A stretch of 12,347 nt of DNA from a virus, in the UHGV virus genome UHGV-0179105; one strand, written 5' to 3'. Numbering within the stretch: the first letter of the stretch is position 1; each line of letters starts with the position of its first letter. The position numbers and the translations under genes were made by a program. Shown here one piece after another: positions 7,247 to 11,901 of this stretch. A model generated the notes under the pieces. It ran no database searches and was not told the DNA's origin. It was given only the letters and a program-made list of their open reading frames with translations.

Positions 7247-7917
7247 GCGATTCGTCCCTCCCAGCTGTTCGGCTGACCTTCGAGGATTTCGATGTCATAG
7301 GCGATCTGTTCGATGACGCTGTCGAGGATGATGCTCTGGCCGGTGCCTTGGCGACCCCAATAGCGCTTGCCGTAGGTATCGATCACGACCTCGCCGTATT
7401 GGCTGAGTTTTTTGCCGAGCCAGTCGGAGACGGCATACCACTCATAGATTGTCGGGACATCGCTCTCCAAATAATCGAAATCATACTCGCCGAAGACTTT
7501 GCCGCAGTTTTTACAGCGCCGGGCGTCATCATACTGGCAGCATTCGCGGGCTTCCTGCAGCGTTTCGTGTTCCTCGCCGCAGATGGGACAAGTATATACC
7601 GGCTCGTCAGAATTCCAATCCTCACCGTGGAAATCGGTTTCATCCGCTTCCATCGGGTCATAATACTCGAAATTGCCAGCCTCACCGCAACTATCGCAAT
7701 CTTTCTCGGTGCCATTGTTAATGGCGTCGTCGTAATCCTCGACAGTAAAAGGGGCGTCTTCATCGTAGCCGATAACCAGAATCGTTTTGATGATGAATTC
7801 GATTTCCTGTGTCATATCACAGTAAACCTCGTTATCAACAAGCTTACTCAGGATACGGTTGTTGGCAGGGGACATCAGGCTGTATTCTTTGCCGTTCACT
7901 TTATAATCGCAGCTCAT
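7243..7917 (-). CDS. acidic multi-CxxC (zinc-ribbon-like) protein, 224 aa
   Basis: Track ORF 7243..7917; ATGA overlap with the upstream gene; motifs CDSCGE, CPICGEEH...ECC and CKNCGK separated by D/E-rich linkers; C-terminal block TYGKRYWGRQGTGQSIILDSVIEQIA. Confidence 0.65.
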   Translation of the reverse strand: MSCDYKVNGKEYSLMSPANNRILSKLVDNEVYCDMTQEIEFIIKTILVIGYDEDAPFTVEDYDDAINNGTEKDCDSCGEAGNFEYYDPMEADETDFHGEDWNSDEPVYTCPICGEEHETLQEARECCQYDDARRCKNCGKVFGEYDFDYLESDVPTIYEWYAVSDWLGKKLSQYGEVVIDTYGKRYWGRQGTGQSIILDSVIEQIAYDIEILEGQPNSWEGRIA

Positions 7918-8561
7918 AAGTATTGTTCGGCCTCACTTTCGTCGATGATGCGATAGTTATTGCCGAAATAGAACGAGAGCATTTCATCTTCCTCATCGGA
8001 GTAGAAGCCGCCGCAGGTATCCTCCAGTGTCCACTCTTTGGTGACTTTATCGTATGGGTAGATGGAGTAGATATAAGCCTCGCCTGTGAGGAACTTGTCA
8101 TAGGTTTCAATTTCGCTTTCGATGATATCCTCGGCGTGCTGCTGCCAGTCGGTATCATTGCCAAAAGCCTCAATGACCTGTTCTTTGGTGCAGATGGCGA
8201 CACCGAAACAGCCGCTATCCCAAGGGTCGTTGAAAGAGCCGGTGCTGATCGTAATGCCGCTGTGAACGTAAGCGTAGAGCGGCACGGAAACAAATTCAGC
8301 TCTGCGGTCTTTAAGTCCGGCAAGGTAATCATCGAGATTGTCACTGTTGGTGAAATCCATATCGTTGTCATACTTGGAGCTGCCGAGGTAGCGATTGCGG
8401 ACATAGCAGATGGTGCAGTAGTTGCAATCATTCTCGCGGGGATTGAGAGGGTCATTATCTCGCTCGGCGGTCACGAAATAAAGCTCTTTGCCGTCTGTGA
8501 CATAAATGCCATCGAGGTCAGTTTCAACGATACGGGTTTCTTTCAATGTCAATGTAGACAT
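7914..8561 (-). CDS. hypothetical acidic protein, 215 aa
   Basis: Track ORF 7914..8561; AAGGAGGTG 6 nt upstream of ATG 8561; motif blocks LYAYVHSGITISTGSFNDPWDSGCFGVAICT; strongly D/E-rich. Confidence 0.7.
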   Translation of the reverse strand: MSTLTLKETRIVETDLDGIYVTDGKELYFVTAERDNDPLNPRENDCNYCTICYVRNRYLGSSKYDNDMDFTNSDNLDDYLAGLKDRRAEFVSVPLYAYVHSGITISTGSFNDPWDSGCFGVAICTKEQVIEAFGNDTDWQQHAEDIIESEIETYDKFLTGEAYIYSIYPYDKVTKEWTLEDTCGGFYSDEEDEMLSFYFGNNYRIIDESEAEQYL

Positions 8562-10285: not shown

Positions 10286-10314
10286 TTGAAATCATTTCCT
10301 TTCTTGATTGAATG

Positions 10315-10605
10315 TCAGTATTCGTCGGGGAAGAGAACAGTCGTGACGGAGCGATCCCATTCTGTGATGATCCAGATGCGCCAGCCGGGGTGGTCGGCTG
10401 GTTCGTAAGCGGAAAAGATACGGTCATCGCCGGTGCGGACAGCTTCATCATTCCGATTCTTATCACTGTCGCAAAGGTCGCCCCAGTCACAGGCTTCGTG
10501 GCGGGCCACGCAGGTGAGGACGAACACTGCAAACTGGCTGTCTCGTGTCATTTTGTCATGCACACCCCGTGTGATTACGAGCGTGCCGAGTTCAAACTGT
10601 TTCAT
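10315..10605 (-). CDS. hypothetical protein, 96 aa
   Basis: Track ORF 10315..10605; AAAGGAG 7 nt upstream of ATG 10605; ATGA overlap with the upstream gene; C-terminal block WRIWIITEWDRSVTTVLFPDEY looks conserved. Confidence 0.65.
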   Translation of the reverse strand: MKQFELGTLVITRGVHDKMTRDSQFAVFVLTCVARHEACDWGDLCDSDKNRNDEAVRTGDDRIFSAYEPADHPGWRIWIITEWDRSVTTVLFPDEY

Positions 10606-10764: not shown

Positions 10765-11181
10765 TCAGGTTCCCTCCCCAGGTGTGAACGGCGTGTCCCA
10801 TTCGTTCCAGATCTCCATGATCTTGTCATGGCCGAGCTGCATATGGTGCGGCATATGGTCATCAATATCAAAGAGAAATTCAAGCTCGTCGTAAGGGTCG
10901 CTGCAGGGATCGCTGTACTTGTGCCCCACAATGTCCCAGCCGTCAATGATGTAGGTGCCGTTGTCCCAGTTGTCGCAGTCAAGGTTGTTGCAGGTGTTGA
11001 TGCGGCAGGCCCAGCCGTAACAATCATCGGTGGGGGAGCGGTATCCTTTCATTTTGCAGTAATCCAGGAAGCTCTGAACGCTGGTTGGACCGCCGTTCCA
11101 GTGGAGATAAACACCGATGGAAGAACTGTCATGCTGCGGGTCAGCGCTGCGGGAAGTGGTAATAACTGCACGGTTACCCAT
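10765..11181 (-). CDS. hypothetical Cys-rich protein, 138 aa
   Basis: Track ORF 10765..11307; preferred start ATG 11181 (MGNRAVITTSRS...) with AAAGGAGA 7 nt upstream; the longer start would overlap the upstream gene by about 130 nt. Confidence 0.6.
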   Translation of the reverse strand: MGNRAVITTSRSADPQHDSSSIGVYLHWNGGPTSVQSFLDYCKMKGYRSPTDDCYGWACRINTCNNLDCDNWDNGTYIIDGWDIVGHKYSDPCSDPYDELEFLFDIDDHMPHHMQLGHDKIMEIWNEWDTPFTPGEGT

Positions 11182-11365
11182 GGTAAAGTCTCCTTTCAAT
11201 ATCTTCCTTGATACTGAGGCGGTCAAGGACATCATAAAGGGATTCGGTCGAGCCGTTGTAAAAGCCAACACCGTAGGGATCTGTGCGGGAACCGTACTGT
11301 GTTTCATTTTCGGAGAGCAAATCGGTGATGGCTGCTTTGATATCGGATTCGGAATAAGTTTTCAT
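11174..11365 (-). CDS. hypothetical protein, 63 aa
   Basis: Track ORF 11174..11539 starts at a TTG with no RBS in GC-rich repeat DNA; internal ATG 11365 (MKTYSESDIKAAITDLL...) has GAGGT 8 nt upstream. Confidence 0.55.
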   Translation of the reverse strand: MKTYSESDIKAAITDLLSENETQYGSRTDPYGVGFYNGSTESLYDVLDRLSIKEDIERRLYHG

Positions 11366-11387
11366 AATATGTAACCTCATTTCAAAT

Positions 11388-11426
11388 GGGTTCCGGGACA
11401 TTGCCGGACGCTCCGAGCGTGAACCC
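11388..11426. other. nested inverted repeats (compound stem-loop)
   Basis: GGGTT (11388-11392) pairs with AACCC (11422-11426), enclosing CCGG-GACATTG-CCGG (11393-11407) and ACGC-TCCGA-GCGT (11408-11420); read by eye, no folding energy computed. Confidence 0.4.
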
Positions 11427-11432
11427 GAAGCG

Positions 11433-11460
11433 CCGGTCAAAAGAAAGGAAGATGACCAGA
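11433..11460. repeat. imperfect direct repeat, copy 1 (CCGGTCAAAAGAAAGGAAGATGACCAGA)
   Basis: Pairs with 11504-11528; shared core CCGGTCAA..GAAAGGAAGA..CCAGA with small indels; inside the GC-rich noncoding island. Confidence 0.7.
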
Positions 11461-11503
11461 TGGACATGGAATCACCACAAACCATGCCCGGTGGTCGGAC
11501 GAA

Positions 11504-11528
11504 CCGGTCAAGAAAGGAAGAAACCAGA
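11504..11528. repeat. imperfect direct repeat, copy 2 (CCGGTCAAGAAAGGAAGAAACCAGA)
   Basis: Pairs with 11433-11460; about 71 bp apart start to start. Confidence 0.7.
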
Positions 11529-11562
11529 ACGCCCGGCAATACCCCGGAACGGTTATTGTAAG

Positions 11563-11697
11563 CTAAACGTACTCCTCACGGATGGAGAGCAATTCATTCC
11601 AGGCTTCGCGAATGGTGTCAGCAGAGCAGAGGAAGGTGTTGCCGTAGAAGATTTCGTAATGGCCGCTTTCGCCGCCGATGTGTTTAAGGTGGAACAT
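11563..11697 (-). CDS. hypothetical small protein, 44 aa (alternative start 11745 gives 60 aa)
   Basis: Track ORF 11563..11745; ATG 11745 has no SD and a hairpin immediately upstream; in-frame ATG 11697 (MFHLKHIGGESG...) follows AAGGAGG with a 4-5 nt spacer. An antisense plus-strand ORF (11386..11724) overlaps, so the coding call is uncertain. Confidence 0.4.
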   Translation of the reverse strand: MFHLKHIGGESGHYEIFYGNTFLCSADTIREAWNELLSIREEYV

Positions 11698-11716
11698 GAA
11701 GCCTCCTTGTTTATTA

Positions 11717-11741
11717 ACTGTTGAATTGTGTACTCTATAAT
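11717..11741. repeat. 25-bp direct repeat, copy A (ACTGTTGAATTGTGTACTCTATAAT)
   Basis: Matches copy B at 23 of 25 positions by direct reading; lies between the hairpin and the RBS of the 11697 start. Confidence 0.8.
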
Positions 11742-11748
11742 TCATGAA

Positions 11749-11776
11749 GTAAAACCGGATGGGCGTCCGGCTTTAC
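11749..11776 (-). terminator. hairpin (terminator- or attenuator-like) between the direct repeats
   Basis: Minus-strand RNA GUAAAGCCGGA-CGCCCA-UCCGGUUUUAC forms an 11-bp stem including one G-U wobble; the same position is an A-C mismatch on the plus-strand transcript, which argues for function on the minus strand. The U-run is only 4 nt and partly inside the stem, so terminator strength is doubtful. Confidence 0.3.
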
Positions 11777-11778
11777 TT

Positions 11779-11803
11779 ACTGTTGAATTGTGTATTCTAC
11801 AAT
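11779..11803. repeat. 25-bp direct repeat, copy B (ACTGTTGAATTGTGTATTCTACAAT)
   Basis: Matches copy A at 23 of 25 positions; overlaps the -10 element of the candidate minus-strand promoter. Confidence 0.8.
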
Positions 11804-11821
11804 ATCACAATCGCTTTGCAA
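11794..11821 (-). promoter_or_regulatory. candidate sigma70-type promoter
   Basis: Minus strand reads TTGCAA (11821-11816), 16-nt spacer, TAGAAT (11799-11794); each hexamer matches consensus at 5 of 6 positions; located in the 204-bp gap upstream of the 11697/11745 start. Confidence 0.35.
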
Positions 11822-11901
11822 TTACAATGGGCTTGAAAGAATTGCGCAAAATAGGTGCGCTCTAGCTAGTATCATTAAAATTCATATTGACTCCTTATCT
11901 G

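Follow-up and report, generated by a model that had tools for sequence, protein, structure and literature searches.

In Firmicutes, several small RNAs (sRNAs) with C- and U-rich loops, among them RsaE/RoxS and the hairpins of the 3′ domain of Staphylococcus aureus RNAIII, carry unpaired pyrimidine motifs that are complementary to the Shine–Dalgarno (SD) sequence and compete with ribosome docking. A second point of comparison is provided by the structured noncoding RNAs (ncRNAs) that accompany the reverse transcriptases (RTs) of retrons, and a third by a catalogue of structured RNAs drawn from IMG/VR, which holds 8,495 candidates with motifs of 29–151 nucleotides (nt) and no RT or SD context (PMC10690425). 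The present study concerns a stretch of 12,347 nt from the virus genome UHGV-0179105 (the window) and, within it, an intergenic gap of 197 nt at positions 11366–11562. Our analysis indicates that this gap very probably holds one copy of a conserved structured ncRNA of 165–175 nt, encoded, like the genes around it, on the minus strand. The RNA exposes two pyrimidine tracts, and we tentatively propose that these tracts pair with SD-type sequences.

Fold, covariation and strand of the RNA

The gap lies between the stop codon of a gene of 44 amino acids (aa) and the ATG of a 63-aa gene, and independent gene calls for the same contig leave the same 197 nt open; every credible gene of the window is carried by the minus strand. 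An initial annotation, made from the window alone, had described the gap as a noncoding island rich in G+C, and the local rise in G+C is indeed present (0.54–0.56, compared with ~0.46 overall and 0.37–0.45 upstream). Folding of both strands, one of the checks that it proposed, gave −84.3 kcal/mol (z = −5.6) for the minus-strand RNA, a value matched by none of 200 shuffles, and z = −2.9 for the plus strand, while folds under DNA parameters were unremarkable on both strands (z = −3.1 and −2.5). The architecture is that of a four-helix junction, in which a closing stem of 16–20 base pairs (bp), P1, surrounds the hairpins P2, P3 and P4 (Table 1).

The strongest evidence for this structure is comparative. 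Among the close copies (29 distinct sequences), 98.7% of alignment cells are paired and 11 pairs have changed on both sides, against 0–4 in slid controls. In the set of 17 sequences from seven lineages, the paired fraction is 97.5% of cells and compensatory double changes are seen in 24 of the 46 pairs, with contributions from all major helices; shuffles gave 9.7 ± 1.7 such pairs, none of 500 reaching 24, and slid controls gave 2–6. Because both alignments had been fitted to the model, the comparison was repeated without fitting, by MAFFT alignment followed by de novo folding with RNAalifold, which recovered P1, P3 and P4 and found 20 of 39 pairs to be compensatory. Some G·U pairs never vary and, with 196 G·U cells in the alignment, pairing amounts to 98.7% when the minus strand is read, compared with 84.0% for the plus strand; these conserved G·U pairs are the reason for assigning the RNA to the minus, or gene, strand. 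Close relatives differ by insertions and deletions of 1, 2 and 3 nt that leave no reading frame intact, and the lineages share no open reading frame (ORF), as the noncoding call of the initial annotation would lead one to expect. Together, the covariation, the strand-specific G·U pairing and the lack of a conserved frame thus identify a structured RNA of the gene strand.

The same comparisons bear on a protein-coding reading, in which a TTG-initiated ORF at 11174–11539, or a small ORF within the gap, would be translated. The window does contain this open frame, which is in frame with the 63-aa gene and which the initial annotation had correctly recorded as lacking an SD sequence; a translated product finds no support, the frame being conserved in no set of homologues. 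The annotation had also proposed to weigh covariation against codon-pattern conservation, and had stated that third-position conservation across the gap, or the loss of its repeats and stems in related elements without any transcript or structure signal, would speak against its view. In the homologues, substitutions track base pairs and not codons, an outcome in favour of RNA, and together with the insertions and deletions this refutes the coding reading for practical purposes, leaving it barely conceivable. A CsrB/RsmZ-type sponge for CsrA, built on plus-strand GGA loops, was likewise considered and rejected on the basis of the 84% plus-strand pairing, the plus-strand fold (z = −2.9) and the lack of a plus-strand promoter.

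Two imperfect direct repeats had been noted in the gap, at 11433–11460 and 11504–11528. They are real, with CCGGTCAA seeds at 11433 and 11504, and both present the same pyrimidine motif, UCUUCCUUUCU. The 11-mer TCTTCCTTTCT occurs in the window at 11442–11452 and 11511–11521 only, both on the minus strand, where 0.26 copies are expected by chance and two copies arose in 2 of 200 shuffles; it is found exactly twice in each complete copy of the close family (subfamilies 1 and 2). Bracketing the direct repeats is a 24-nt long-range inverted repeat, I1 (11390–11413/11527–11550), which the initial annotation overlooked, as it also left the functional strand unstated. The nested stem-loops that it placed at 11388–11426 can be drawn as local hairpins but are not the conserved fold, since the comparative data pair 11390–11405 with 11535–11550 and 11407–11418 with 11423–11434.

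Four roles had been offered for the gap without ranking, and of these the structured small RNA is the one that the covariation, the strand-specific G·U pairs and the fold uphold. The others act at the level of DNA. A double-stranded site, whether an iteron-type origin, a protein-binding array or an att site, could appeal to the combination of two direct repeats with inverted repeats and to an integrase ~10 kb away in one relative. However, where an iteron-type origin has at least three tandem repeats of 17–22 bp, the repeats here amount to just two non-tandem 11-nt cores, 69–78 nt apart in a G+C-rich segment and placed within covarying helices; there is neither an adjacent AT-rich region nor a Rep gene; conservation is not DNA-symmetric, which tells against a recombination site; and the compensatory pattern of the substitutions is that of an RNA made from one particular strand. 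Because the covariation is strand-asymmetric, a double-stranded DNA site is disfavoured, and we regard it as highly improbable. The same grade applies to a single-stranded DNA element of the transferred strand, such as a Frpo-type promoter or an ssi/sso priming site. Its appeal lies in the strong, orientation-specific fold and in neighbouring genes that resemble those of plasmid leading regions, among them the gene of a 96-aa protein whose homologues are carried by 172 plasmids (78 predicted to be conjugative). Nevertheless, the DNA folds are unremarkable, no −35/−10 pair lies inside the stem, P1 is too short for a promoter, the strand whose pairing is conserved is the coding strand and thus unable to template the adjacent genes, and the invariant G·U-type pairs point to RNA. 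Even when pooled, the DNA-level and coding readings retain at most a slim chance of being correct.

Table 1. Features of the gap and its flanks, in window coordinates
Feature	Position	Strand	Evidence and remarks
Whole structured RNA	11383–11556 (core 11390–11550)	minus	Covariance model R1, 184.3 bits, E = 2.7e-48; single copy in window
P1, 5′ arm GUUCCGGGGUAUUGCC	11535–11550	minus	Inverted repeat I1; 9 of 16 P1 pairs double-changed across lineages; recovered de novo
P1, 3′ arm GGCAAUGUCCCGGAAC	11390–11405	minus	Inverted repeat; covariation; recovered de novo
P2 hairpin	11497–11534 (base 11530–11534/11497–11501; upper stem 11522–11527/11504–11509)	minus	Displays pyrimidine tract 1
Pyrimidine motif 1 UCUUCCUUUCU, P2 loop	11511–11521	minus	Exact 11-mer; unpaired probability 1.00; within direct repeat 11504–11528
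P3 hairpin, with 12-nt apical loop UUUGUGGUGAUU (11470–11481)	11462–11489	minus	6 of 7 pairs double-changed
Pyrimidine motif 2 UCUUCCUUUCU	11442–11452	minus	Exact 11-mer; unpaired probability 0.93; within direct repeat 11433–11460
P4 hairpin, 12 bp, variable loop	11407–11434	minus	5 of 11 pairs double-changed; UA-to-CG swap, window type versus subfamily 1
44-aa gene, phrog_19836	11563–11697	minus	Upstream of the RNA; stop codon 12 nt before P1; coding-like third-position substitutions
63-aa gene	11174–11365	minus	ATG 25 nt past P1; in other lineages not a conserved neighbour of the element
Promoter-like site TTGCAA-16-TAGAAT, preceded by TG	11794–11821	minus	Consensus scan only; ~240–270 nt upstream of P1

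Distribution and association with a reverse transcriptase

The RNA family comprises more than 90 loci in seven lineages, all from human-gut viral or metagenome sequences, and the covariance model finds exactly one copy per locus. A search with the flanking proteins led to 13 IMG/VR contigs of 55–233 kb that carry the element at ~90% identity; the mobile elements in which the family occurs measure 75–230 kb and are classed by IMG/VR as viral contigs. A pattern search with the two CU motifs uncovered subfamily 2, in which other stem sequences carry identical loops; its copies are ~63% identical to that of the window and the neighbouring genes 58–67%, with the fold and the motif blocks still kept. 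A scan of metagenomes supplied 31 further loci, a number that includes the window's own contig, every labelled one being from a human-gut assembly, and tracking of the neighbouring RT led to five more divergent lineages. A pattern search with the P2 strand returned the same 19 viral contigs and nothing further, a scan with an apical-loop 16-mer gained chance matches only, and no analogous motif pair was found on the gene strand in 73 related loci.

Searches of reference collections were negative. GenBank phages gave no megablast match; Rfam 15 gave none over the whole window at gathering thresholds, with only noise at E up to 10, and nothing in a subfamily-2 locus either; and ARAGORN detected no transfer-RNA or transfer-messenger-RNA genes. 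Two exact-pattern scans of 185,579 GTDB representative bacterial genomes returned zero matches, and thus no prophage or host copy was found in these genomes.

In subfamily 2 the element begins 20–30 nt 3′ of the gene for a 396-aa retron-type RT in 12 of 12 loci. This RT (Pfam RVT_1; PADLOC RT_II-A, E = 1.7e-44) has all of its top matches in retron clades. Its family, which comprises 3,659 proteins at E < 1e-20, occupies more than 541 loci in IMG/VR and has a conserved synteny of two unknown proteins, a ThiF-family protein and then the RT. The element lies 3′ of the RT in five of six sampled RT lineages (61–85% RT identity) and in 28 loci of a clade at 61–62% identity, the spacing being 5–30 nt at loci L122 and L181–L184 and ~360 nt at those of the L185/L195 type. 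It is absent near RT clades at 44–51% identity, even when the model is rebuilt from all lineages, and was not found at the distant RT locus L024.

The RT is also flanked by two retron-style ncRNAs, ncRNA-A upstream (L122 5783–6136) and ncRNA-B downstream (L122 ~7556–7926). Each has its own closing inverted repeat and the bodies differ, yet both contain a 49-nt msr-like hairpin module (CUCUCAGGUCAUAUCCGAGAG + UACGAAUUUGU) that occurs neither in the element nor elsewhere in the window. The order of the element and ncRNA-B is swapped between lineages. The arrangement of an RT with two ncRNAs (L122:5783–7926, also L181–L185 and L195–L223) may represent an undescribed retron type on gut mobile elements. 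At L184 a second RT gene, of at least 448 aa because the end of the locus cuts it (L184:6000–7188), lies ~1.8 kb downstream of the first.

This neighbourhood raises the possibility that the element is an accessory RNA of the RT, either an extra template whose tracts would be copied into purine-rich complementary DNA (cDNA), or a regulator or 3′ untranslated-region (3′-UTR) element of the RT transcript. The copy in the window would then be a leftover, or the partner of an RT encoded elsewhere. In addition to its recurrent position 3′ of the RT, the element has a P1 that resembles the a1/a2 closure of retron ncRNAs. Moreover, one subfamily-1 contig, L226 (IMGVR_UViG_3300045988_153181, ~84.4–85.6 kb), encodes a 46%-identical RT ~7.5 kb downstream of its RNA copy, and for this reason an RT may be present elsewhere in the genomes of the RT-less clade; no element adjoins the L226 RT itself. 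On the other hand, canonical retron ncRNAs sit upstream of the RT, and this RT already has such an ncRNA upstream (and another downstream) with the msr-like module that the element lacks. The swapped order and the absence of the element near the 44–51% RT clades also argue against the idea. In the window's lineage no RT was found in a span that starts 10 kb upstream of a 51-aa gene, which itself precedes the element by ~0.75 kb, and that ends 11 kb past the element on the downstream side, nor in subfamily 1 within 2.8 kb upstream. The RT-less clade (~45 loci, 22 distinct sequences) keeps 98.7% pairing all the same and has compensatory changes of its own. To judge from these substitutions, the window's lineage keeps the RNA under purifying selection, and because it does so with no RT beside it, an adjacent RT appears not to be needed for function. 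We therefore view an RT-linked accessory role as possible but doubtful.

A more specific proposition is unlikely, namely that the element is the third RNA of a new retron-like system consisting of the two unknown proteins, the ThiF/E1-like protein, the RT and two msr/msd-style ncRNAs. Its tracts would be copied into purine-rich, SD-like cDNA, or would serve as a decoy of the 16S 3′ tail against ribosome-directed defence, and the window's lineage would have kept the RNA as a stand-alone effector once the RT was lost.

Pyrimidine tracts and candidate modes of action

Motif 1 is invariant among the 29 distinct close copies, and the upper stem of P2 varies by lineage around the same loop (CUGGU/ACCGG, CAGCCG/CGGUUG, GCUG/CAGC); P2 is present in the minimum-energy fold of all lineages but L184. 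In most lineages motif 2 is an unpaired stretch that links P3 to P4, and in the window it forms the loop of a local 5-bp hairpin (11453–11457/11435–11439). The probability that the tracts are unpaired is 0.86–1.00 in every lineage. Subfamilies 1 and 2 have the same P3 loop; most lineages keep a UGGU(G/A)A core in it, and L182 has UGGUUC.

The UCCUUUCU core of UCUUCCUUUCU matches the 3′-terminal octamer, the anti-SD tail, of Firmicute 16S ribosomal RNA (rRNA). Local ribosome-binding sites (RBSs) read GAAAGGAG, AAGGAGG and AAGAAAGGAA, the first and last of which are complementary to the tracts, and predicted loop duplexes fall mainly on RBSs, including the best ones. By analogy with the sRNAs of Firmicutes, our preferred, though tentative, proposal is that the function of the RNA is anti-SD pairing by its exposed tracts. 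Having no promoter of its own, the RNA would be transcribed with the upstream gene from the promoter-like region ~240 nt upstream and, closed by P1, would either persist as a nuclease-resistant module in the operon transcript or be excised. The scaffold presents two accessible homopyrimidine tracts, UCUUCCUUUCU in the window, and these would pair with purine-rich SD-type sequences of messenger RNAs (mRNAs) of the element or of the host. If this is true, then tract pairing would compete with ribosome docking.

The RBS of a Bro-N/anti-repressor-like gene, UCAAGAAAGGAA (10286–10310), has 12 nt perfectly complementary to the P2 loop of the window, and subfamilies 1 and 2 both retain its AAGAAAGGAA core, one edge change being correlated. 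As a specific target this site was rejected, since it ranked first with the full loops and was not robustly top with the invariant core (five loci).

Several observations weigh against anti-SD pairing. No specific mRNA target emerged, the Bro-N site failing the core-only comparison, and no partners for the conserved P3 loop were found locally. Across lineages the tracts keep a pyrimidine composition and a UUUC-like periodicity, not an exact sequence, and L184 has a single tract without CC; a protein ligand or a template role would account for this pattern no less well than SD pairing does, and for that reason both roles are also plausible. Furthermore, an RNA with generic anti-SD activity would act on the genes of the element itself as well, and the model leaves the strong ancestral linkage to a retron-type RT unaccounted for.

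Were a protein the ligand, the tracts, perhaps with the P3 loop, would act as a decoy or sponge for a pyrimidine-specific RNA-binding protein; alternatively, as a mimic of the 16S rRNA 3′ tail, they would titrate away a tail-recognising host factor or defence toxin. Such a role is consistent with the conservation of composition over exact sequence, with the bivalent display, with the identity of UCCUUUCU and the Firmicute 16S 3′ end, and with a neighbourhood of anti-restriction-like, plasmid leading-region-type cargo. However, none of the candidate proteins is found with the element throughout the lineages, no bacterial protein family is known to have such specificity, and the argument is purely inferential. 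We consider a protein decoy quite unlikely.

Operon context and comparison with known systems

Across relatives, the upstream stop codon and P1 are separated by 10–30 variable nt, which leaves no space for a promoter belonging to the RNA, and the consensus scan found no promoter-like pair inside 11366–11562. Because the stop codon of the 44-aa gene is so close to P1, the RNA is probably co-transcribed with this gene, and the transcription unit with both of them probably begins at the promoter-like site at 11794–11821. No conserved terminator was found 3′ of the element. What follows differs by lineage: it may belong to the 63-aa family, encode a protein of 88 aa that is unrelated to it, or be a further ncRNA. 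None of the window's proteins is found with the element throughout the lineages, so that the element stands as a self-contained unit within operon transcripts. The 63-aa gene is itself a mosaic: in six contigs (L088–L093:3001–3210) its first ~14 codons are identical and the remainder is replaced (46–49% identity), and the RNA beside it stays ~90% identical. The 44-aa gene starts with ATG in the window, whereas subfamily 1 (L083:2662–2805) has ATC at this position and GTG three codons upstream, and its substitutions are coding-like.

These features would also suit an element that acts purely in cis, its P1 duplex serving as an RNase III-type processing site, as protection of a 3′ end or as an insulator, and its loops being incidental or needed for folding. 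In favour of this reading, the element lacks its own promoter, is always co-directional with its neighbours and begins shortly after the upstream stop; in three lineages the next start codon lies ~25–30 nt further on, a U-run follows the element in subfamily 2, and the varied follower is what a context-independent module would show. Yet a simple processing or stability hairpin needs no four-helix junction, nor invariant loop and junction motifs amid covarying stems, and neither the U-run nor sequestration of the downstream gene's SD sequence by the P1 flanks is conserved. On balance a purely cis-acting element seems improbable to us, and anti-SD pairing remains the reading that we prefer.

The initial annotation counted two gaps longer than 150 nt in the window, and this count stands, the second being 11698–11901. 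A third candidate, at 325–550, was rejected as coding because its ORF continues past the left end of the window: a minus-strand ORF preceded by an SD sequence starts near 535 and leaves the window at that end (1–535), so that the listed minus-strand ORF 73–324 is probably spurious. The gap 11698–11901 is a regulatory region. On the minus strand it contains, ~240–270 nt upstream of P1, the promoter-like site and a duplicated box in which TAGAAT/TAGAGT is followed by ACACAATTCAACAGT, as well as a strong terminator-like hairpin at ~11752–11775, and its arrangement could be that of an attenuator or operator.

The surrounding cargo, which includes the Bro-N/anti-repressor-like protein, the plasmid-linked 96-aa protein and numerous small acidic proteins, is of the type commonly seen in the early or anti-defence regions of mobile elements; the Pfam and PHROG matches of the neighbours do not decide between phage and plasmid. 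Many of the plasmids that carry homologues of the 96-aa protein (10315–10605) are from Vibrio and Pseudomonas, and some of these homologues are annotated as 'type I restriction endonuclease subunit M'. By its homologues, the protein looks like an anti-restriction or leading-region-type small protein.

The element is a new RNA family, absent from Rfam 15, of a known kind, the structured regulatory RNAs of mobile elements. It adds a well-supported family (more than 90 copies, 24 covarying pairs) to the very small set from human-gut mobile elements, and the covariance model and coordinates make it searchable in metatranscriptomes. The twin display of a motif like the 16S tail suggests interference at the RNA level with ribosome docking or with a pyrimidine-binding factor. 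In addition, the habitual place of the RNA beside a very common, uncharacterised RT offers an entry to the role of such RTs and their RNAs on carriers that themselves resemble phages or plasmids.

A description of this RNA was not found in the literature, the supplement of the IMG/VR structured-RNA catalogue lying outside our search (PMC10690425). The candidates in that catalogue come from the same data source and rest on the same type of evidence, covariation in phage intergenic regions, and a fragment of the element may be among its 8,495 anonymous entries. In its lack of a promoter and its position between cistrons of an early-type operon, the element is reminiscent of 3′-UTR-derived or operon-embedded processed sRNAs and of the RNase III sites of T7-type phages, and its long duplex is a candidate processing site; its architecture is much more complex than that of known processing hairpins, however, and conservation extends to its loops. 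With retron msr–msd ncRNAs it shares a long terminal inverted repeat (the a1/a2-like, covarying P1 of 16–20 bp), multiple internal hairpins and, in most lineages, an adjoining RT; in contrast to them, it lies downstream of the RT, lacks the msr-like module and is maintained in an RT-less lineage. Finally, like RsaE/RoxS and RNAIII, the element displays several unpaired, pyrimidine-rich, SD-complementary motifs in loops and linkers, in a multivalent fashion, and strong SD usage is found both in the organisms that carry those RNAs and in the element's genes. It differs from them in having no sequence or Rfam similarity, in a U-rich motif, UCUUCCUUUCU, in place of CCCC or UCCC, in the enclosure of its motifs within a closed four-way junction that has neither its own promoter nor its own terminator, and in residing on a mobile element, usually beside an RT, with targets that are putative.

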